From a virus: a DNA stretch of 64,000 nt. The translations under genes were made by a program, and so were the position numbers. The notes under the pieces are model-generated. The model was not told the origin of the DNA and made no database searches. It worked only from the letters and a program-made list of their open reading frames with translations. Of the stretch, positions 2,559-64,000 are shown in pieces. The stretch is taken from positions 13,558-77,557 of the IMG/VR virus record IMGVR_UViG_3300027668_000013; one strand, 5' to 3'. The stretch's first letter is position 1; the number at the start of each line of letters is the position of its first letter.

Positions 2559-4916
2559 TTATGGAAGTGGTTGTGGTCTTGGATTATTTATATCCGAATG
2601 TGCTTCAAAATTACTTCCTTGAAAAACGTGAGGTTCTGTACCACTTGTAATAAGAACTGCTAATGGGTAACCAATACTTGTCCATGTATATGCCCCACCT
2701 TGTGGTGCATGATCAATACTATAACCTACTGATTCATTTGCTACATCTGAACCAGTTCCTTTTACTCCATTTGGAGGAGGAAAAGTACCTGTAAAAAGAC
2801 CACTACCACCAGCACCTTCGTAAGAAACAATTATATCAGTATTAGAACTACTACTACCTGGCCACCAGTGATTATTTTTTGTTACTACTCCTTCTACTGA
2901 ATGAGGTCTACTCATTAAATTTGAACTTTGTGCTTTAATATAATAAAATCCTGTTGTCATGCTTACAATAATCCCAAGTCCTTGTGATTTAGCACTGTTT
3001 GCATATTGAAGATTTATTGCTGCCATTAAACCAGCTGTTACTGTAGCTTTTGTTACTGTACCTGTTGCAGGAGTAGTATAAGTAATTGCGTAGTTAAGTA
3101 CAGACTGAGTACCTACAGGCCAATTTTCAAATTCTATCGAGAACGTAGCGTTATTTGAAACGGCAGAATCTTCAATTTCTAAAAGAAATTCTGGTTGCGT
3201 TGATTCACTAAGTCCTTTTTGTCTTACTGATACAATTTGAGAATACCAACTTGTATAATCAATAACTTGCGTATCAGCATTAGGAGTAATAAAAGAAAAA
3301 CTATTTAAAGGAAAATCCTTAAAGGTTTTATTTCGAATACCTCTACAAAAACTTGTATTCATTAAAGAAGGCCCAGAAATGTATCCTGTACCACCAGTAC
3401 TTACTTGTCCAAACATTAAATTTGCACACTCATCTCCAAACATATTACCTCTTCCTCCGTTTATTCCATGAAATGAAATATTTGAACAAGCTATTCCGAA
3501 TGTATTATATGCCATTTCAGAATATGGAGAATAATAATTACCTCCAACAAAAGAAGCATCTTGCTCTCCAATTAAATTAATTAAGTTACAACCTTGAGCA
3601 AATCTGTTATATCCACCTGAATAAATATCAATAGCTGTACAACTTGCTCTAAAATCGTTTGCTGTAGTACTTCCTAAACTAATTGCACCACAACTATTTC
3701 CAAATACATTCTTATGAGATTGTCTAATTATAAAAACTCCTACATTTTTACTACCTAATTCATTAAAATTACTTTTTAAAATAATAATATCATTTGATTT
3801 CTGCTTTATTTCATTATTAGTAGAATCAATTACTAAAACTTCATTACAATGATTTTCAATTTTATTTTCATTACTATCAAATATTAAAATTTCAGTACAT
3901 TTTTTACCAATAGAAATTTCGTCAGATCGCATTACTACAACGTTAGAAGAATCTTCACCAATGGCAATGTTTCTACAAGCCAATATTGTTATTCCATTTG
4001 ACCCTTTCCCAATTTCTATATTTTCACATTTATGACTTGCACCAAAGAATTGATTTCCACTACCGATTAAAACATTTGTAACTCCTTTTGCTAATTTAAT
4101 TCCAGTATGAGTTGACTCAGAATTGGATTTAAGAAAACAAGGATAAAAAGTAGGGGTTGATGATACAGTAATAGTATTACTAAATAGTTCTATAGACCCT
4201 CCATTATAAGCATAATAAGGTTGATTTTCAAATACATTACCAATATCATTAACCAATCTAAAATTATTTTGAGCTGAATCATCTCTAACAGAAATACGAA
4301 TACCCCCATTAGATGGATCTCTATACATTTCACTTCTATCAACTGTAGTTGCCGTACTTGGAATTGAACTGTTAAGTAATTTAAATCTTGCAACAGTATA
4401 ATTTCTGAAATCAAAATAAGCTTCGTTATCATTTAAGATATCATATCTTCTAATTACAGTACCATTATCAAGAACTGCAGGTGAACCATGGCTTGCTTGA
4501 GTTTGATTATATTCTATAACATCATATGGATTGTCTTCTGAAAGAGCAAAACCACTCAACTTATTGGTAGTAGTTGCAAGAACTAAGAACTTTTCAATGA
4601 TTTGAGTATATCCTGGAACTGTAGTATTTGTTAATAAACTATCAGTAATAGCATGAACATTTTCAAAATCAAATCTATACCATGTACCAGGTACTAATGT
4701 ACCAGCTGCTACATGAACTCCTAATTGAGCATATGTTAAATTTACTATGTTTGCGTTACCACCTCCAACATTGTCTCCCCATAAGGATTCAATCATGTCG
4801 CATAATGATTTTTGCAGTCCTTCTCCTGTTATTCCAAAAGTATCATTTTTAAAAACCTTTGCTACTACAGCATTTATTAGGTCTTGTTTTACGTTATAAT
4901 CAGTTCCTATTGCCAT
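2559..4916 (-). CDS. tail fibre/spike with beta-helix repeats
   Basis: N-terminal LTYAQL..LVPGTWYRF...DVIEY...GTVIRRYD..NEAYFDFRN fibre segment, then repeated NxFG/IG..C beta-helix rungs. Confidence 0.7.
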   Translation of the reverse strand: MAIGTDYNVKQDLINAVVAKVFKNDTFGITGEGLQKSLCDMIESLWGDNVGGGNANIVNLTYAQLGVHVAAGTLVPGTWYRFDFENVHAITDSLLTNTTVPGYTQIIEKFLVLATTTNKLSGFALSEDNPYDVIEYNQTQASHGSPAVLDNGTVIRRYDILNDNEAYFDFRNYTVARFKLLNSSIPSTATTVDRSEMYRDPSNGGIRISVRDDSAQNNFRLVNDIGNVFENQPYYAYNGGSIELFSNTITVSSTPTFYPCFLKSNSESTHTGIKLAKGVTNVLIGSGNQFFGASHKCENIEIGKGSNGITILACRNIAIGEDSSNVVVMRSDEISIGKKCTEILIFDSNENKIENHCNEVLVIDSTNNEIKQKSNDIIILKSNFNELGSKNVGVFIIRQSHKNVFGNSCGAISLGSTTANDFRASCTAIDIYSGGYNRFAQGCNLINLIGEQDASFVGGNYYSPYSEMAYNTFGIACSNISFHGINGGRGNMFGDECANLMFGQVSTGGTGYISGPSLMNTSFCRGIRNKTFKDFPLNSFSFITPNADTQVIDYTSWYSQIVSVRQKGLSESTQPEFLLEIEDSAVSNNATFSIEFENWPVGTQSVLNYAITYTTPATGTVTKATVTAGLMAAINLQYANSAKSQGLGIIVSMTTGFYYIKAQSSNLMSRPHSVEGVVTKNNHWWPGSSSSNTDIIVSYEGAGGSGLFTGTFPPPNGVKGTGSDVANESVGYSIDHAPQGGAYTWTSIGYPLAVLITSGTEPHVFQGSNFEAHSDINNPRPQPLP

Positions 4917-8462: not shown

Positions 8463-9107
8463 TTAAAAATCTTTTTCTTCGAGTAATGTATAAGTGAAGT
8501 TTTCACCTTGACCGTGTTTTGTTTGTAATTCACAAAGAGTAATTAAACGAAGAAAAAGATCCGGACTTTGAATAACTTGACATCCTGCTGAATACCTGCC
8601 AATATTCAATAAGTTTTTCCACTTAGACGCACGATGTATGTTAGTTTTAGAATTAGATATTTCAAACTTATCACTATTGTGATCTGTTGTCATATCTTCA
8701 TATAGATTAAAATCTAATTCAGAATCTTTAGAATTGTCACGAACATAAGTCATAGGTTTAACTTGTTCGAGTGCCTTATAAGCTGTCTTTGGTCTACTTC
8801 GACCATGAATACCTATTCGATAAGCTCCTCTGTATTGGCCAGGTACAATAATGATAGTTCCTTTTTTGTTCATTGGGTTTAAAAGCCAATGTTTACCAGG
8901 ATCTGTAGTACATGGAAATACTTCGTGACATTCTTCTCCTTTTTCGTCTTTAAATAAAACATGAATTTCATCATCAAACTTATCAGATTGGCTATTGTTA
9001 GATCGTATTCCTATAATATTTAAATTATAGCTCCCCTTACTAAAAAACTTATAGCCTTTTCCTTTAACGGTCTTAATAATACTCTTAGATGATATATATT
9101 TTTTCAT
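8463..9107 (-). CDS. endolysin candidate (YkuD/L,D-transpeptidase-like Cys peptidase)
   Basis: NLNIIGIR, FDD, TTDPG, PGQY, NIHRA...SAGCQV (H...SxGC catalytic motif); probable start MKKYISS at 9107; upstream of holin and spanin-like genes. Confidence 0.65.
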   Translation of the reverse strand: MKKYISSKSIIKTVKGKGYKFFSKGSYNLNIIGIRSNNSQSDKFDDEIHVLFKDEKGEECHEVFPCTTDPGKHWLLNPMNKKGTIIIVPGQYRGAYRIGIHGRSRPKTAYKALEQVKPMTYVRDNSKDSELDFNLYEDMTTDHNSDKFEISNSKTNIHRASKWKNLLNIGRYSAGCQVIQSPDLFLRLITLCELQTKHGQGENFTYTLLEEKDF

Positions 9108-9192
9108 GTTATAATTATTATAAATTCTATATTTTTTTACTTTAGCATACAATAAAATAAGTATTATCATAATGATAGGAAAAGATAACATA

Positions 9193-9588
9193 TTAATCTA
9201 AATAAGTTACTTCTACATCTCCTACATTTGGAAAAAACTCTTCAATTATTTGTTTTCCATAATTACTCATCATATAATGTAAAGCCTTTAAACCTGTTTT
9301 ACCCCCTTCAGAATAAATATACTTATCAGATTTATCTTCTTTTTCCATTTCAAAGTCTTGGCCCATAATGTTTTTTTCTGAACCTTCAATACTTAACTTA
9401 ACAGCATTCTCTGCTTTCCATTCAGTAGACTCTCCGTAACACCAATTAAAAGGTATGTTAAAAGTTTGAAGAGTTTCTCTTCCTGTACCAATATTCCCAG
9501 GACAAGATATTTTTCTTATACCTGCTGCGTAAATATCAAGACCTCCTGCTTTTACTCCGCTATTTTCTGTTAAAGTTATTGTTATCAT
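9193..9588 (-). CDS. hypothetical protein (tail fibre module)
   Basis: 131-aa ORF co-oriented within the tail module. Confidence 0.6.
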   Translation of the reverse strand: MITITLTENSGVKAGGLDIYAAGIRKISCPGNIGTGRETLQTFNIPFNWCYGESTEWKAENAVKLSIEGSEKNIMGQDFEMEKEDKSDKYIYSEGGKTGLKALHYMMSNYGKQIIEEFFPNVGDVEVTYLD

Positions 9589-9600
9589 TTTTATTATTTT

Positions 9601-10614
9601 TTACATCATTAAAAAAAAATTATTATTTCCTGTAGAAGCTTCAGTAGTTACACTACCGTTTAAAGTAATATTTCTGGTTGTAGCATCAGTTGACGCTACG
9701 GTTAATGTTTCACTATTATAATCAGCTTCTGATAAACTTGTTTTAAGTCTTACATAAACTGTTCTTGGTTCTGATACAAGGTCACCCCCAGATCTACCTA
9801 TTGACGCAGTTCCTCCAAACCCACTCCCACTTGATAATGATACTTCATAATTAGTAGGTGCGGTAATAATTGCGTTTGCAGTTAAGTCATCTCCAGATAC
9901 AGTAAAGGTTTGATTTGAACTTGGTCCAGAACCTTCCTCATAAGTAAATCCACTTAATGCTGTTTCTGAAACAGTAAGAGTTGGAGTTGCAGAAACTGCT
10001 GCTTTTATTTCTATAGTATTGTTAGTAAACTGCTTCCAACTTGCACTTGCAGTTACAACACAAGTAACTGTTCCTGATACTTCCTGAGTAGAAAGACCAA
10101 CCCCCATTTTATTACCAATGTTTAGATTGTGTCTTTTGATTAAAGTTTGGCCCCCTATTGTCCAACTCCCTTGAGATGGGGATTGAGTACTGATACCCAT
10201 TAATAACATTCTTGATCCAGCAGTTACTCCAGTTCTGTTTCTTGAGTGAGGTGTGTTTGCTACATCGTTATTTCCAACAACTCCACCATCAGAAGACGCT
10301 CCTGTAAATGAATAAACATGAGTTCCAATTGGATTCCAAGTTCCAGCAGTCATGGTTATTTTAACTTGATTTGTTCCAGTTGCTGGGTTGGCTAAAACAA
10401 AAAACCCATACTTATTAGTAGATCCGTTGTGATACAATCTTGATGTTAAAGTAACATTATTGTATTTGATGTTGCTTATCTGGTTAGATTTATTATGAGC
10501 AATAGCAATAACAAGAAATCTATCATCACCTGTATTTTGGCTATGATTAAATGTAACAGTAGTTCCTCCCGGATTTGTTACATTAGTTGTTTTTGTTCCT
10601 GCTGCTATCGCCAT
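9601..10614 (-). CDS. tail-associated protein with beta-sandwich/Ig-like domains
   Basis: Thr/Ser/Gly-rich; C-terminal Ig-like GPSSNQTFTVSG..LTANAIITAPTNYEVS...TVYVRL...ITLNGSV domain. Confidence 0.6.
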   Translation of the reverse strand: MAIAAGTKTTNVTNPGGTTVTFNHSQNTGDDRFLVIAIAHNKSNQISNIKYNNVTLTSRLYHNGSTNKYGFFVLANPATGTNQVKITMTAGTWNPIGTHVYSFTGASSDGGVVGNNDVANTPHSRNRTGVTAGSRMLLMGISTQSPSQGSWTIGGQTLIKRHNLNIGNKMGVGLSTQEVSGTVTCVVTASASWKQFTNNTIEIKAAVSATPTLTVSETALSGFTYEEGSGPSSNQTFTVSGDDLTANAIITAPTNYEVSLSSGSGFGGTASIGRSGGDLVSEPRTVYVRLKTSLSEADYNSETLTVASTDATTRNITLNGSVTTEASTGNNNFFLMM

Positions 10615-13453: not shown

Positions 13454-16400
13454 TTACATTGTATTTGTATTTACTAAATACTGGTACGATTTCTTTACGT
13501 CTTTTGCTACAAACTGTTTATAAAAAGGATTAAATAATTTTTGCACATTTACATAAGTTTTAGATTCTCCTTTAAATTGACCACGTTCATAATATTCTGG
13601 AGAAATACCAAAACCATCTTCCATAAGTTGAACTCCCGTTCTGTATAATGCTTCTAATATTGATATTGTTGCCGATGGACTTTTTATAAATCTTAAACCT
13701 TCTCCAAATATACCTACCGGGGTATAGAAAGCAAGTTCTCCATATTGCCTTCTCATTAAATATGCTAAAGCATATATCTTTCTTTCATCATCTTCATCAC
13801 CAACACCTTCAGCTAATTTAACTAACAGAGTAGAAGCAATTAAAGTTGCAACTGTCATTGATAATTCTGCAATAGCACTTTTTATATTTCCTTTTTCGGT
13901 ATCTGTAAGCTTATTCCATTCTTTAGAATAAACTTCTGTTTGCATAAATTTACCATGTTTCCATAGTTTACTTAAATACATAATTCCAGACACGTAAGTT
14001 CCTTCTTTAAACTCTTCTGAGAATTGAGAATACATTGCTCTATCTTCTAAATTAGAGTCTATATCTTTAAATAAATTTTCTCCACCTCTCCATCTTCTTT
14101 GAACACCAGGTATCATCCATTTCTTTAAAAAGAATACAAGCTTTCCATACCAATGTCTTTGTATTTGAGCTTTATTGTTCTCGTCGTAGTTACCATGAAG
14201 ATCTTTTACTACTTCTTTTAATATTTTAGACATTACAAATTCTATGTCTGGAGCATCTTCATATCCTTCAACTTTCCAATCTTTGTTTTTTAAAGTTAAC
14301 TTTCCTTTTGTAGCCTCTTTATCTTTTGGATCATAGTAAGCTTCATCTAAACTTATTGCTTCTTCTCTTGTTGCAACTACATTACCATTTTTACCAATAT
14401 ACTCGCCATTTTTATTAACTACTTTTTTATTATTTAAAAAAGCATAAACAACTGTACCGTGTATGTAATGTTCCGCAGCACTATTTATAGCATGTAAACT
14501 TTGCATTCCTGCCATGTTCTTAAATCTACTATCTTTAGTAAGTTTGTTCGACATCCCAGTAAAATCCATAGAAGTATCTACAAATTTTTCAATAAGCATT
14601 TGAGTTTTAGATGTAGGATAACCTACTCTACCAATATCTGCAGACCAATTTGTAAAGTCTAACATGTATTTAAGTTCAGCGGCTCTTAAATCTTTTCTTC
14701 CATAGTGCTGTCCTCTAACACCTTCAAACCAGTTCATTACTTTACCAGCAAGCATGTTTGCACCACCTCCCATATAATTTGCAATAAGGAAATTATTAGA
14801 AGACCATCCTATAAGACCGTCGGTTAAAGAATCTACATCCATACCGAGTATCTTGAAATCAGATTTAACCATTTGTCTACCATACAGTCTATCTTCAATT
14901 ATACCTTTTATTAACTCATAACTCTGAGAAGTTTTCCCACTTTCTAATATTTCTTGCTCTTCATCTAATTCTACACCAGCTAAATTTTTAACTTTACTAA
15001 GTAATCTTTTAGAACCTCTATTTTTAACAACACTTCTTTCTCCCATAATATCAGAAAGAACTTCTATTTGTGTTTTTATTGCATTTTTATTCTTATAATT
15101 AAGGGATACAAATCTATTTGTTAAAGCCATTCCCATTAAATCATAAGACTGATCTTCGTATTCTAATTTGCTTCTAAAAGGAATATTAACTCTTTTTAAT
15201 ACGTTTCCAGATTCATCAGTAACAACTTTTACCCCTTTACCATCTTCTGTAAGATCTCCGTATTTATCAGATTCATCTTTTTGAACTCTTTTAAGTTCTT
15301 TCCAAACCCTACTTGCAGTTTTTTTCGCTCCATTATCTGTTAAAGTTTCAGAAAGAGCTTTACTAATACCAGGTAGTTTGAATCCTAACTTGGCTTGTTG
15401 AGGGACATTGTTATCTGAATCTTTATTAAACTGAATAAGATAATCATACATTTCTTTTTTTCTACTATCTTTTTGTAGAGCAAAGTATTGTGGATTAAGA
15501 TTGTCTTTTTCTGGATAATTTTTTTGAAATTCTTCTTTTAATTCACGTCTTTTTTTAGCACTTTCCTCTTTAAATAATTTTTGATTTAATTCATTTTTAG
15601 CTGTATAATAAGTAGAATAATATAGTTGTACATAATAGTTAGTTTCTTTACCATTAATCTTTTCAATAATATTATTGTACAATTCCTTTTGATTTGTAGG
15701 AGTTACTGATTTTCCAAAACCTTTTTTAAATTCTTTCCAAGTGTCTATTGCATCTACTCTTTTGTCAATAAATTCAGCTTGACTACTTTTTTCAGCGCGT
15801 TCTAACATCTGAACTGTTAATTGTACAAGATGATCATTAATTCCTTTTGGATCTATAAGTAATTTAGAAAAAGCACTAATATCTTTTTTAGAAACGTCTA
15901 ACATTTCTCTTAGGGTTTTCTTCTCTTCCCTTAGAATTTTTGCAGCATTATCATTCATTGCCTGTTTGATATATGCTTTTGCCGCTAAGTTGTGCTCTTT
16001 TGCACTAAGCTTTGTTTTAGAACGAGGGTTATTAACTCTAAACTCCCTTGCAAATTTTTCTTTATATGTATCTCTTACTAAAGAAGATTCGTTTGCAAGA
16101 ATATCAACCATTACATCTTTAGAGTACGCTATATATTTTGCATCAAAAGAATCTACTCTACCTGCAGCACTTGCAATTCTTGCCTTAAAACTTTTAGGAA
16201 TATCATCTCTACTTTCTATTATTTTAGCAAGATCTTTAACCATGTCAAAAGTACCAGCATAATCACGAAGTCTTTTTAAATTTCCAGGGCTCTTTTTAAA
16301 AGAACCACTTTCTATTTTTTCTATTAAACTTCCAGTAACATCAACTTTTCTACCACCTACTACTTTAGTATATCCTAAATGAGAATCTATGTTTTGTATG

Positions 16401-61465: not shown

Positions 61466-61808
61466 GCTTACATAAAACTTCTGATTCTCTTACAATCCAA
61501 AATACACTTGGTCTGTTTGCATTAGAAGAATCAATTATTAATTTTTGAATACGACTATGGTTTTGTAATGAAACAATATCTCCCACCTCTATAAAGCTAA
61601 CCCCTTCTCCTACTGCTGCAATTACCAGTTCTCCAGTAGCGGCTTCTTGAGCCTTATCATCAATCTGCTTTAAGTATTGTTCTTTACTTAAAACAAAGTC
61701 TCCACTTGGGAAGATGTTACTTGGTGGCAATAGTGCTATTGTACCAGGATAAGGAGTAAAGTTTACTGCGCTCTTACTTTCTTTTAATTCTGTACTTTCC
61801 ATATTCAT
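61446..61808 (-). CDS. GroES-like co-chaperonin
   Basis: FTPYPG..., VIAAVGEGV..IEVGDIV, IVRESEVL match the Cpn10 signature pattern. Confidence 0.7.
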   Translation of the reverse strand: MNMESTELKESKSAVNFTPYPGTIALLPPSNIFPSGDFVLSKEQYLKQIDDKAQEAATGELVIAAVGEGVSFIEVGDIVSLQNHSRIQKLIIDSSNANRPSVFWIVRESEVLCKHDKDFN

Positions 61809-61826
61809 TCAATTTAGTATGTACAC

Positions 61827-61862
61827 CAAAACTATGTATAAAATTTAGATACACCAAATATA
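61827..61862 (-). promoter_or_regulatory. tandem Bacteroidota -7 boxes heading the late operon
   Basis: TATATTTG (61855-61862) and TAGTTTTG (61827-61834), each followed by GTGTA on the minus strand. Confidence 0.5.
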
Positions 61863-61889
61863 TGTACTGCTTTTTTATTATTTTCACAA

Positions 61890-61995
61890 TGTACGTTTTG
61901 CACATTGTACAAAGTGTACATTATTACATTATTACTAACTATAATATATATTGGTAATGGTGTACGGTTTGTACATGTATTGTACGTTTCGTACA
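61890..61995. promoter_or_regulatory. four TGTAC-N5-GTACA palindromic sites
   Basis: 61890-61904 (1 mismatch), 61906-61920, 61961-61975, 61981-61995. Confidence 0.7.
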
Positions 61996-62418
61996 TTATG
62001 TTGAGAACCAAGTAATTATATCTTTGTGCAAACTCGCAAGATTATCTTTTGGTATCTTCTCAAGATCATACACCCTGGTTAAATTATTCTTTATGTAGTG
62101 CACATCAATCCTATACGTAATAGGTGCTTTGAATCCAGCGCGTTTTACAATAAGCAGTTTTCTATCTTCTAAACTTTTACGAGTGGACTCAAACTTTCTT
62201 CTTGTCATCCTTGTAAACGGTTTCAGCCTTTCAAACGTATATGTTATCTCTTTGGACCTATGTACTTTTTGCAACTCTAATATAGTCTCAAATAAAATGA
62301 TCTCGTCATTAGTGAAATCATCTCTGTAAAAAAACTTCTTGTAAATGCTATGAGAAGGCAAGTCCTTAATAAACTTGTCATTCCTATATAAAGCTTTTAT
62401 TACATGTTGATCTGTCAT
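61996..62418 (-). CDS. winged-HTH DNA-binding protein (putative regulator/initiator)
   Basis: FTRMTRRKFESTRKSLEDRKLLIVKRAGFKAPITYRI, a wHTH pattern; start at 62418 (or 62436). Confidence 0.6.
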   Translation of the reverse strand: MTDQHVIKALYRNDKFIKDLPSHSIYKKFFYRDDFTNDEIILFETILELQKVHRSKEITYTFERLKPFTRMTRRKFESTRKSLEDRKLLIVKRAGFKAPITYRIDVHYIKNNLTRVYDLEKIPKDNLASLHKDIITWFST

Positions 62419-62420
62419 AT

Positions 62421-62445
62421 TGTACGGTTTGTACATTCAAAGATA
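62421..62445 (-). promoter_or_regulatory. -7 box (TATCTTTG) adjacent to a fifth TGTAC-N5-GTACA site
   Basis: Box at 62438-62445; palindrome TGTACGGTTTGTACA at 62421-62435, identical to the site at 61961. Confidence 0.6.
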
Positions 62446-62617
62446 TACATAAATAATGTGTACACAAAACATGTGTATATAATTTTTGAGTATTTTTTTT
62501 TGGGGGAAATTTTTTGTGAGAGATAATAAGTGTTAGGGTCCTTTTTTAAAACTCCCCCTTGGAATTGAGAGAGTCCCATGGAGGGACCTTCATAATTAAA
62601 ACAAAAAAACGCTCACT

Positions 62618-62857
62618 ATGGCTGAATTATTAAAAATTAACGAAACGGATGCAGGAAATTTCATTGGACACGTCCAAACGAAAGAAATTAAGAAAACTAT
62701 GCTTGGCAACGTGAACGCTGACAAGTATTATTTTGTCCGTCTTGCAGACAACAAAACAAAGATTGGACCAATCAAGGGCTTCGACCTTAAAGATTGGGAC
62801 GTTGTCCCATCTTTTGATGATGATGGAAACAGATTCAACTGGTTGGAACCGAAGTAG
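62618..62857 (+). CDS. hypothetical early protein
   Basis: 79 aa; first gene after the strand switch, A-rich leader, followed by a hairpin. Confidence 0.7.
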   Translation: MAELLKINETDAGNFIGHVQTKEIKKTMLGNVNADKYYFVRLADNKTKIGPIKGFDLKDWDVVPSFDDDGNRFNWLEPK

Positions 62858-62858
62858 T

Positions 62859-62885
62859 GAGAGCCCTTAGGGGCTCTTTCTGTTT
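62859..62885 (+). terminator. terminator-like hairpin
   Basis: GAGAGCCC-ttag-GGGCTCTT followed by TCTGTTT (imperfect U-tract). Confidence 0.6.
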
Positions 62886-62900
62886 GGTAGTATGCTTTAC

Positions 62901-62979
62901 TACAATAAAATTAGGTAGAGTGTTGTGTATTGTTCAGGTGATAGCGAGCGATACACACCACTCAATCCTTATTGTTGTA
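62901..62979 (+). ncRNA. long irregular RNA hairpin
   Basis: TACAATAA/TTGTTGTA, AGG/CCT, GAGTG/CACTC, TGTGTATTGTTC/GAGCGATACACA with G-U wobbles that pair only on the + strand. Confidence 0.5.
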
Positions 62980-63131
62980 TTACTATCCTATCTATCATTC
63001 TATTCAATTAGAATTATATAAAGGATATTTGTAAATAAACTAAGTGGAACTCTTGAGCAATCCACTTGATATAGATAGCTCCAGAAAAGTATAATATGTG
63101 TGCACAACATAGTATATTCTTCTGTTTTTTT

Positions 63132-63173
63132 AAATACTAATGGTTAATATAGGTTCGATTCCTATGGTATTTC
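63132..63173 (+). ncRNA. mini-tRNA-like element 1 (acceptor stem + T-arm, no anticodon)
   Basis: AAATACT-AATGGTTAAT-ATAGG-TTCGATT-CCTAT-GGTATTT-C. Confidence 0.75.
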
Positions 63174-63176
63174 TAT

Positions 63177-63270
63177 TAAACAACAGGTTTATGGTGTGTA
63201 ATTCATCAGCTGGCCTCATGACCATTCAGCCGTATAGTCGGTAATAGATTGAGACTGTTGTTTATTTTTT
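63177..63270 (+). ncRNA. structured RNA between the mini-tRNAs
   Basis: Perfect 10-bp closing stem TAAACAACAG/CTGTTGTTTA, internal GCTG/CAGC and CCG/CGG helices, trailing U-tract. Confidence 0.5.
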
Positions 63271-63312
63271 AGATGTTAATGGTTTATACAGGTTCGATTC
63301 CTGTAACATCTC
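63271..63312 (+). ncRNA. mini-tRNA-like element 2
   Basis: AGATGTT-AATGGTTTAT-ACAGG-TTCGATT-CCTGT-AACATCT-C. Confidence 0.75.
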
Positions 63313-63388
63313 TTTTAAAGTCAAGGAGTGATATAATATTTATCACCTTAGTACCTTGACATTGTAGTAGTGATACTACAAATTTATT

Positions 63389-63507
63389 ACACAACCATTA
63401 TAGTGGAGATGAATAACAATTTAGTTATATGACTCGATGAAGCTGGTAGACTGGCTCTTACAAACTGATCAAGTGAGTAGGTTAAGTGCTAATGGTTGTG
63501 TTTTTTT
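63389..63507 (+). ncRNA. multi-stem structured RNA
   Basis: 12-bp closing stem ACACAACCATTA/TAATGGTTGTGT enclosing three small helices; followed by a U-tract. Confidence 0.5.
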
Positions 63508-63510
63508 CTT

Positions 63511-63537
63511 ATTAATTAAACTTTACTAAAATACTTT
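63511..63537 (+). repeat. repeated 27-nt gene leader, copy 1
   Basis: ATTAATTAAACTTTACTAAAATACTTT, 4 nt before ATG 63542. Confidence 0.65.
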
Positions 63538-63541
63538 GATT

Positions 63542-63853
63542 ATGTACAATGTTATTAAGTTTACCGATAAAGATGGTAATGTAAATCATATACCAGCTTG
63601 TGAAGATATGTGTTCTGGAGGGATTACTTCTCATCCAGGATTAGTTGCAATAGAGATAAGTAATCTTGATGATGCAATTGAGCTTGCTAATTATTTCGAT
63701 CGTGAGATCAATGACATTTGGGATAAGTTAAAAAAACCACCGTTCTATTATAAAGAACCAAGGTCTAACAACATTCCTTTACATGTTCAGTTTGAAGAAA
63801 TGAAAAGTAATCCAATTACTCAATCTGCTAACAGCGAACATTTAGATTACTAA
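63542..63853 (+). CDS. hypothetical early protein
   Basis: 103 aa from ATG 63542, preceded by the repeated leader and followed by a terminator. Confidence 0.7.
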   Translation: MYNVIKFTDKDGNVNHIPACEDMCSGGITSHPGLVAIEISNLDDAIELANYFDREINDIWDKLKKPPFYYKEPRSNNIPLHVQFEEMKSNPITQSANSEHLDY

Positions 63854-63855
63854 TA

Positions 63856-63879
63856 AAGAGGACAGTTAGTCCTCTTTTT
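63856..63879 (+). terminator. intrinsic terminator
   Basis: AAAGAGGAC-agtta-GTCCTCTTTTT. Confidence 0.7.
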
Positions 63880-63882
63880 CTC

Positions 63883-63909
63883 ATTAATTAAATTTCACTA
63901 AAATACTTT
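63883..63909 (+). repeat. repeated 27-nt gene leader, copy 2
   Basis: ATTAATTAAATTTCACTAAAATACTTT (25/27 identical to copy 1), 3 nt before ATG 63913. Confidence 0.65.
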
Positions 63910-63912
63910 ACA

Positions 63913-64000
63913 ATGAATAACGAAACTCCAATTCAAAAAGCTGAAAGACTTATTGCATTAACTGAAAAGATATTGCATATGAAATCAGAACCAATCGTAA
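63913..64000 (+). CDS. 5' part of a hypothetical early protein (truncated)
   Basis: MNNETPIQKAERLIALTEKILHMKSEPIV..., open to the window end. Confidence 0.6.
   Translation, partial: MNNETPIQKAERLIALTEKILHMKSEPIV

Follow-up and report, generated by a model that had tools for sequence, protein, structure and literature searches.

Transcript ends can be defined by the machinery that matures transfer RNA (tRNA), as is known from mitochondria and from MALAT1. Ribonuclease (RNase) P, RNase Z and the CCA-adding enzyme recognise the acceptor/T-arm half of tRNA. In the MALAT1 and MEN-beta transcripts, RNase P cuts directly behind a U-rich structure that stabilises the RNA lying upstream and so generates the 3′ end of that RNA; RNase Z, together with CCA addition, frees the small tRNA-like product, mascRNA (RF01684). 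Structured intercistronic signals that recruit an endonuclease and yield hairpin-capped pieces are also known from the RNase III sites of phage T7 early messenger RNAs (mRNAs) and from mitochondrial tRNA punctuation. Here we describe two 42-nucleotide (nt) tRNA-like minihelices, mini-tRNAs 1 and 2, in a noncoding tract of the IMG/VR virus record IMGVR_UViG_3300027668_000013. The whole stretch of DNA analysed is called the window; it is 64,000 nt long (positions 13,558 to 77,557 of that record), and all coordinates below are window coordinates unless another genome is named. We favour, with moderate confidence and from sequence comparison, the reading that the minihelices would act as RNase P/RNase Z processing signals of the t-element type.

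Mapped mRNA ends coincide with the borders of plant-mitochondrial t-elements and have been attributed to RNase P and RNase Z (Forner et al. 2007, PMC1920247). Like the phage element, t-elements are non-canonical tRNA-like structures with a conserved GGTTCRANYCC T arm and an acceptor stem, placed at mRNA 5′ or 3′ ends (PMC1920247). They are organellar, heterogeneous and cloverleaf-like (PMC1920247), whereas the phage minihelix has a uniform 42-nt form in which the AAYGGUU linker is fixed; the two have no sequence relationship, and cleavage of the phage element is a prediction. The likeness to mascRNA lies in a tRNA-like element embedded in a longer noncoding transcript, which in the phage is proposed. 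mascRNA is eukaryotic and nuclear, has an anticodon-like arm and follows a triple helix, whereas the phage has a hairpin-U tract and no Rfam match. The minihelices differ from T7 RNase III sites and from tRNA punctuation in the presumed enzymes, RNase P and RNase Z, and in the signal, which is the top half of a tRNA and neither a duplex nor a full tRNA.

Mini-tRNAs 1 and 2 are intergenic and co-oriented with the flanking + strand open reading frames (ORFs), one of 79 amino acids (aa) at 62618-62857 and one of 105 aa at 63542-63853 (ATG at 63542).

63132-63173, + strand: mini-tRNA 1, with acceptor AAAUACU/GGUAUUU, linker AAUGGUUAAU, T arm AUAGG-UUCGAUU-CCUAU and discriminator C
63271-63312, + strand: mini-tRNA 2, with acceptor AGAUGUU/AACAUCU, linker AAUGGUUUAU, T arm ACAGG-UUCGAUU-CCUGU and discriminator C

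The two copies share one 42-nt plan that consists of a 7-base-pair (bp) acceptor, a 10-nt linker AAUGGUU(A/U)AU, a 5-bp T stem with a UUCGAUU loop, a 3′ acceptor strand abutting the T stem, and a C. Acceptor pairing is 7/7 in both copies and includes one G-U in copy 1. The copies differ at 11/42 positions; among the differences are four compensatory double changes, of which three fall in the acceptor and one falls in the T stem. The flanks of both copies are nearly identical (U6 upstream and C-U-W-UUAAA downstream), and a helix begins 3-7 nt downstream of each. Near-identical flanks beside 11 internal differences indicate that the flanks are more constrained than the stems. The R1 covariance model, described below, scored mini-tRNA 1 at 59.2 bits (E = 9e-16) and mini-tRNA 2 at 61.1 bits (E = 2e-16), and no other R1 match above 17.5 bits was found in the window or the rest of the contig. 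Both copies have the acceptor/T-arm joint, the AAYGGUU linker, the T arm followed by C and the co-oriented intergenic site that characterise the R1 family. The firmest result of the analysis is that the mini-tRNAs named in the initial annotation are real, covarying mimics of the tRNA top half.

Canonical tRNA and the tRNA-like domain of transfer-messenger RNA (tmRNA) share with the minihelices the T arm GGUUCGAUUCC, the 7-bp acceptor and a D-loop-like GG. Unlike them, mini-tRNAs 1 and 2 have no D stem, anticodon arm, variable loop, coding part, G3-U70 or encoded CCA. With the Rfam tRNA model RF00005, copy 2 reached 22.5 bits where 29 are required, and its alignment deleted 33 model positions, the D and anticodon arms among them; the same search did not report copy 1. 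ARAGORN called 0 tRNA or tmRNA genes in the window. tRNA introns were considered and rejected, as in silico removal of the minihelices gives no tRNA or tmRNA. A tmRNA (RF00023, RF04321) had no ARAGORN or Rfam match in the window, nor after minihelix removal. A His-tRNA-like identity (C73) is ruled out by position -1, which is A or U and not G. A phage attachment site (attP) or integration remnant is ruled out by the compensated acceptor variation and by the arrays described below, and we know of no crAss-like phage that integrates, a further point against it.

IMG/VR was scanned with a pattern that specified the linker and the T loop only, and at least 105 contigs matched. Acceptor complementarity of at least 6/7 was present at the expected place in 62 of the 106 distinct matches listed, compared with 0-4 when the position examined was shifted by 8-30 nt. 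ARAGORN placed no tRNA at the pattern match in the 26 loci checked. The family (R1) was defined by a 7-bp acceptor that runs straight into the T arm on its 3′ side, an 8-12-nt linker beginning AAYGGUU that replaces the D arm, anticodon arm and variable loop, a 5-bp T stem ending GG/CC with a UUCGAUU loop, and a C discriminator; an alignment comprised 21 gap-free examples. In this alignment 96.8% of the paired cells are complementary and double changes occur at 10/12 pairs; its rows were preselected for pairing, so the shifted-position comparison is the unbiased test. R1 also recovers copies whose linker reads AACGGUU. In 63/78 family members the discriminator is C. Neither the elbow-forming GG nor the T loop varies across the family, in contrast to the acceptor, whose sequence changes freely. 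The same pattern gave at least 122 matches in 185,579 prokaryote genomes. Among the matches listed there were 33 minihelices and 28 true tRNAs, distributed over Bacteroidota, Firmicutes, Spirochaetota and other phyla, with many on short contigs of metagenome-assembled genomes (MAGs). The family is widespread, occurring on many uncultured-phage contigs, in known gut crAss-like phages and on bacterial or MAG contigs. Free-standing tRNA top-half elements in phage genomes are apparently undescribed in the literature searched.

Placement was analysed for 78 distinct family members, with neighbouring ORFs of 70 aa or more taken into account. Upstream, the closest such ORF shares the strand of the minihelix in 65/78 and runs opposite to it in 6/78; downstream, it shares the strand in 52/78 and runs opposite in 15/78. 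A same-strand stop codon lies within 10 nt of the minihelix 5′ end in 25/78. Arrays recovered by R1 contain five copies in contig L040, four in L031, six in L034, three in L055 and two in L063. The array unit in L040, L031 and L055 runs from a stop codon through ~8-10 nt, the minihelix, the C, a 5-7-bp hairpin and an A-rich spacer to a Shine-Dalgarno sequence and an ATG. After cutting, this layout would leave a hairpin-capped 5′ end on the downstream mRNA. L034 (IMGVR_UViG_3300028883_000018, oriented 8985-9824) carries six near-identical minihelices 150-200 nt apart, separated by ORF-free spacers that are nearly all A and C, and it looks like a small-RNA or sponge locus and not like operon punctuation.

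The L034 locus bears on a decoy role in trans, in which the mini-tRNAs, and possibly the modules B to D described below, would sponge proteins that bind the tRNA elbow or acceptor end (for example defence toxins acting on tRNA 3′ ends, RNase P or the CCA-adding enzyme). The invariant GG and T loop next to a freely varying acceptor fit such a role, as does the site of the present tract in a mosaic accessory region heading a probably early block. Against it, most family members occur singly in the narrow space between two genes, in keeping with a cis role, and no defence-related partner is known or was identified here. We regard decoys as improbable and a trans function of the pieces, as decoy or in anti-defence, as speculation. 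Minihelices were also observed in large phages with 17-25 tRNA genes and a tmRNA (L027, L042, L073 and L093), where a minihelix with a conserved ~70-nt upstream sequence heads the tRNA array; in L073 it lies between the tmRNA and the first tRNA.

One subgroup of the family occurs in known human-gut crAss-like phages, the Loutivirinae of the Suoliviridae. The minihelix of cr53_1 (NC_055889, 75415-75456) lies 14 nt ahead of the DNA primase ATG, within the replication operon. Its slot is the gap between a hypothetical gene and DNA primase in all of cr53_1, cr4_1, cr109_1 and cr56_1 (L114-L117). The elements in this slot of cr4_1, cr109_1 and cr56_1 keep the T arm, the 7-bp acceptor stem, the C and the downstream sequence, and in addition form a D arm (GUUU-AAUGGUA-AAAC in cr4_1) and, at the anticodon-arm position, a long hairpin. 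The bare minihelix thus belongs to one genus and the fuller, cloverleaf-like form to the others. ARAGORN and Rfam made no call at the Loutivirinae primase-gap elements. Only the acceptor stem, T arm and C are kept across the slot, which points to selection on the top half alone. The D-loop GG of tRNA docks on the T loop, and the AAUGGUU linker is a D-loop remnant that keeps this GG, as shown by the cr4_1 orthologue with its retained D arm. The Loutivirinae element is preceded by a variable domain with a 16-bp closing helix and five compensatory pairs, then UUUU, a layout shared with modules B and D of the window.

The window is the right-hand 64 kb of a 77.6-kb linear contig that is ~80% complete and belongs to a crAss-like phage of ~31% G+C. 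All public runs containing this phage DNA are of marine origin, and the host probably belongs to the marine Flavobacteriia. The - strand encodes a 5322-aa ORF with a virion RNA polymerase (RNAP) signature, the portal and the large terminase, and rightward (+) genes begin at 62618. Most of the rightward block lies beyond the end of the contig, which stops at window position 64000. Positions 62858-63535 form the longest gap in which neither strand has an ORF of 75 aa or more (678 nt, compared with 323 nt for the runner-up), and 96% of the window is coding, which agrees with the initial description of an ORF-free tract in a gene-dense genome. A small-ORF account of the tract was rejected, as its one small ORF of any length (54 aa, 62857-63021) has no protein-level conservation in the relative L124.

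The minimum free energy of the whole tract on the + strand is -182.9 kcal/mol, compared with -144.1 ± 4.5 kcal/mol in dinucleotide shuffles (z = -8.7). The value for the - strand is -164.5 kcal/mol (z = -6.2). This difference, and several U-A to U-G changes in hairpins A2a and A2b of relatives that are meaningful on + strand RNA only, uphold the earlier view that the + strand RNA is favoured. Piecewise folding gave z scores of -4.2 for 62879-63024, -2.2 for 63025-63131, -1.2 for 63174-63270, -5.2 for 63313-63388 and -2.7 for 63389-63508. Each fold listed in the initial annotation was recovered in its place, with a weak interior at 63177-63264, and the control with shuffled sequence that it called for came out in favour of structure. 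The features of the tract other than the minihelices are as follows.

62859-62885, + strand: compact GC-rich intrinsic terminator of the 79-aa ORF, found by the terminator scan and kept in relatives, where its loop differs; it bounds the tract upstream
62885-62985 (outer helix) and 62913-62969 (core), + strand: module A, a long imperfect hairpin with U-G wobbles (z = -4.2)
62987-63024, + strand: small hairpin, found by folding and alignment in a ~45-nt block invariant among the window, L124 and L121
63041-63068, + strand: hairpin A2a, kept in three sequences with one G-C to A-U compensatory pair
63066-63095, + strand: sigma-70-like promoter candidate TTGATA-18-TATAAT (11/12), the best match of the region, overlapping the 5′ arm of A2b
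63082-63131, + strand: hairpin A2b (63082-63124) plus U7, abutting mini-tRNA 1, with two A-U to G-C compensatory pairs
63174-63270, + strand: module B, 97 nt, then U6 abutting mini-tRNA 2; 10-bp closing helix 63177-63186/63255-63264
63320-63381, + strand: module C, two hairpins (63320-63360 and 63362-63381), the first starting 7 nt past mini-tRNA 2 (z = -5.2)
63389-63507, + strand: module D, a multi-helix domain with a 12-bp closing helix, then U7 (z = -2.7)
63512-63537 (feature 63509-63541), + strand: repeated 26-nt motif TTAATTAAAnTTnACTAAAATACTTT, with a second copy at 63884-63909 (2 matches, 0 expected)

The tract is best explained as a noncoding + strand RNA locus in a marine crAss-like phage, made of stable stem-loop domains with the two top-half minihelices between them and standing at the head of a rightward gene block that is probably early. 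In the proposed mechanism, one transcript would run through the tract on the + strand. Host RNase P would cut at the minihelix 5′ ends, after the U tracts (behind 63131 and 63270), and host RNase Z or an equivalent would cut past the discriminator C (behind 63173 and 63312). Cutting would yield an upstream RNA that finishes with hairpin-U7, a 97-nt module B RNA with both ends locked in the 10-bp helix, two 42-nt mini-tRNAs, and a C-D RNA that starts 7 nt before a stable hairpin. This last RNA would either terminate, after ~190 nt, with the module D U7 or extend into the 105-aa gene and form its leader. The processing-signal reading is favoured because only the acceptor/T-arm half is conserved, the sites are co-oriented and intergenic, cap-like hairpins are present, and full tRNA-like elements stand in the same slot. 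The folds, the minihelix family with its covariation and its placement, and the mosaic make-up of the tract are observed; transcription of the tract, the enzymes, their cleavages, the early timing and any function of the released pieces are inferred.

Several observations weigh against this mechanism. The U-tract hairpins before each minihelix look like terminators and would halt transcription ahead of the minihelix, and a strong terminator stands ahead of the tract. In the terminator scan, 62859-62885 and 63855-63877 qualify as intrinsic terminators; A2b, B and D, with their U6-7 tracts after long AU-rich or long-range helices, were not called. A U-rich upstream stretch is present in only 7/78 family members. 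Module B is convincing for its 10-bp closing helix only, and its interior fold (z = -1.2, not significant) is no better than chance. No convincing promoter was found in the region. The match at 63066-63095 is a candidate in an AT-rich genome where sigma-70-like matches of at least 10/12 are common; its hexamers are kept in L124 and L121, and an internal promoter at this site is possible. The two fitting metatranscriptome contigs lie on the flanking ORFs only (62639-62897 and 63572-63722) and may be DNA carry-over; the missing RNA cover of the tract says nothing either way, and the end of an RNA-library contig at 62897, near the 62859-62885 terminator, is a weak hint. No tRNA-processing enzyme was found among the ORFs tested on the rest of the 80%-complete contig, so processing would depend on the host. 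The closest terminase relatives (63-87% identity; G001/L108/L113 and L109-L111) have no minihelix and carry unrelated syntenic sequence, and L124 is without module B, mini-tRNA 2, module C and module D (a 335-nt block, 63174-63508). These absences make the elements dispensable.

The terminase relatives conserve the divergent promoter region and a 146-aa gene, and the sequence beyond is unrelated. In G001 an ORF79-like gene and a terminator are present, together with a separate ORF-poor tract that measures ~790 nt. Closer relatives are marine metagenome contigs found via the 146-aa protein; a search through the 79-aa ORF found none. L124 is 83% identical over 61801-63173 and resumes at 63509, and a short TATTAA repeat stands at the ends of the missing block. 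It has a single minihelix, which differs from mini-tRNA 1 by the change of A3-U70 to G-C and of one T-stem A-U to G-U and is directly followed by motif TTAATTAAAnTTnACTAAAATACTTT. A2b forms a near-perfect 16-bp stem in L124. The hairpins at 63041-63068 and 63082-63124 are 83-87% identical in two relatives, with three compensatory pairs. Module A is identical in L121 and L122, and its 5′ arm is replaced in L124. L121 diverges immediately past the A2b U tract, and the ORF79 cassette is absent from L122. A DNA contig from another marine sample is without 63525-63896 and has its joint inside motif TTAATTAAAnTTnACTAAAATACTTT, which makes the motif also a recombination point for gene cassettes. These losses and replacements among L121, L122, L124 and the deletion contig show that the region is a mosaic of small cassettes. 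The public DNA contigs are near-identical and thus provide no population covariation.

The single minihelix of L124 lies ~35 nt before the ATG of the 105-aa gene, and minihelices lie 14-60 nt before start codons in L040, L031, L055 and cr53_1. This placement fits a different, more tentative reading, in which the minihelices would trim a long, structured 5′ leader belonging to the 105-aa early gene and covering 63313-63541 or perhaps all of the tract. The leader hairpins might then act in cis on mRNA stability, attenuation or translation control, a suggestion we hold equally tentatively. The failure to find a homologue or target for the payload modules agrees with a leader. Against it, the 12-bp helix and U7 of module D resemble a transcript end, module B lies between two minihelices and would be excluded from any mRNA after processing, and the motif TTAATTAAAnTTnACTAAAATACTTT before each ORF may be the promoter of the gene itself. 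For the segment 63313-63541, a processed 5′ leader and free small RNAs are equally good accounts.

The mosaic structure also bears on whether the tract is regulatory clutter or recombination debris made of terminators, promoters and protein-binding palindromes, with the minihelices as roleless, decaying remnants of tRNA genes. The ORF79 cassette gone from L122, the B-D block gone from L124 and the ORF105 deletion variant would all be expected of debris, as would a fragment of the minihelix 5′ half within module D, the terminator-like U-tract hairpins and the sigma-70-like site overlapping A2b. Remnants would not have perfect 7-bp acceptor stems maintained by compensatory changes, nor would they reappear with one defined 42-nt architecture on numerous unrelated phage contigs and in gene-boundary arrays. 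Conservation between the two copies is also higher in the flanks than in the stems. Debris is an unlikely explanation on balance, and RNase P/RNase Z processing signals are retained as the favoured one.

The 3′ closing strand of module D (63482-63497) matches the start of the mini-tRNA 1 region (TTAAGTGCTAATGGTT) at 14/16 nt, and the 5′ strand of the module, AACCAUUA (63389-63400) is complementary to the linker UAAUGGUU of both minihelices. These matches reflect either a recombination scar or alternative pairing. The sole repeats in the tract are the two minihelices and the motif TTAATTAAAnTTnACTAAAATACTTT. The motif stops 4-5 nt ahead of the ATG in two successive + strand ORFs, one of them the 105-aa ORF, and may be a promoter or translation-start signal. 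The ~45-nt block at 62985-63030 contains an ATTCTA-N6-TAGAAT inverted repeat and is identical in the window, L124 and L121, with flanks that diverge by 13-17%. This pattern suggests that the block is a signal read by its sequence, for example a promoter or a protein-binding site.

Known RNA families and homologues of the modules were sought. Rfam at gathering thresholds reported nothing in the whole window, and at E up to 10 it gave weak, chance-level matches only; the self-cleaving ribozymes for which a scan had been advised are unsupported. An AdoCbl-II riboswitch (RF01689) was rejected at 22.6 bits against a threshold of 36.5, with the GGGAAA and GCCAC core positions deleted. A type III toxin-antitoxin (ToxI-like) array was rejected on the lack of tandem repeats and on neighbours without family matches. 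BLAST of the tract against 50,697 phage records returned no match, and exact and degenerate searches of IMG/VR found no module B, module D or full minihelix sequence. Comparison of the modules with the fetched loci and the rest of the window gave 12-15-nt chance matches only. The initial annotation had proposed a small-RNA cassette with anti-defence RNAs, antitoxin mimics or regulatory RNAs as payloads. Its noncoding, + strand-structured tract with real covarying mini-tRNAs stands; the payload roles find no support, with no tandem array, no Rfam family and no homologue elsewhere.

Expression of comparable regions is known from the Cellulophaga phage phi14:2. Two long intergenic regions in its early block are transcribed rightwards at levels above most genes, and their RNAs are already there at the earliest time point and remain abundant afterwards (Drobysheva et al., bioRxiv 10.1101/2020.03.07.982082). 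The early ORF-free regions of phi14:2 (L118, NC_021806) at 1279-1983 and 2905-4601 were found to contain two tRNA-related RNAs that are absent from the record annotation. The first is a tmRNA at 4031-4500, which is called by ARAGORN and scores 46 bits against an Rfam threshold of 47. The second is a tRNA-like element at ~1761-1850 with normal acceptor, D and T arms and an aberrant anticodon arm. The phi14:2 terminase lies 8.8 kb before the early block on the opposite strand, a divergent arrangement that the window shares. The two phages, marine and crAss-like alike, have long ORF-free regions in the first kilobases of a rightward block that diverges from the terminase side. They differ in that they share no sequence similarity, phi14:2 has no R1 minihelix and the terminases are only 38% identical; the expression data are those of phi14:2. 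By this analogy the tract may be expressed early and may use the virion RNAP.

Two further observations concern the surroundings of the strand switch. The leader of the 79-aa ORF (62500-62617) contains complementary G-rich and C-rich runs (GGGGGA...CCCCC and GGGTCC...GGGACC) that are partly kept in G001 and L124, which suggests a structured 5′ untranslated region. Palindromes of the TGTAC-N5-GTACA type (for example TGTACGGTTTGTACA, present twice) occur at 61950-62000 and 62415-62475, on either side of the 146-aa - strand ORF. The product of this ORF weakly resembles a DnaD-like helicase loader (PHROG E = 0.003). The palindromes stand where the coding strand switches and GC skew is lowest, and they are candidates for operators or origin sites.

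tRNA-like processing signals as such are already known. What is probably new here is their predicted occurrence in phages, with a uniform minimal architecture. A bolder version, which we consider improbable, is that phages of many lineages, crAss-like phages among them, use a so far overlooked class of 42-nt tRNA top-half genes to hijack host RNase P and RNase Z, and that the present tract would be a cassette factory for early, trans-acting, stable and end-locked small RNAs (module B, modules C-D and the mini-tRNAs), for example decoys against tRNA-directed defences. The literature searched held no phage account of transcript ends set by the tRNA-maturation machinery. The minihelix is short, recognisable by a covariance model and missed by tRNA finders, which makes it useful for annotation, and its presence in relatives that are cultivable models and in gut genomes like cr53_1 makes the prediction directly testable. 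If RNase P and RNase Z do cut at the minihelices, phages would use tRNA maturation as a general tool for making transcript ends. The element would be a compact, portable processing signal with possible use in engineered operons, and it would provide a handle on the unexplained abundant early noncoding RNAs of crAss-like phages.

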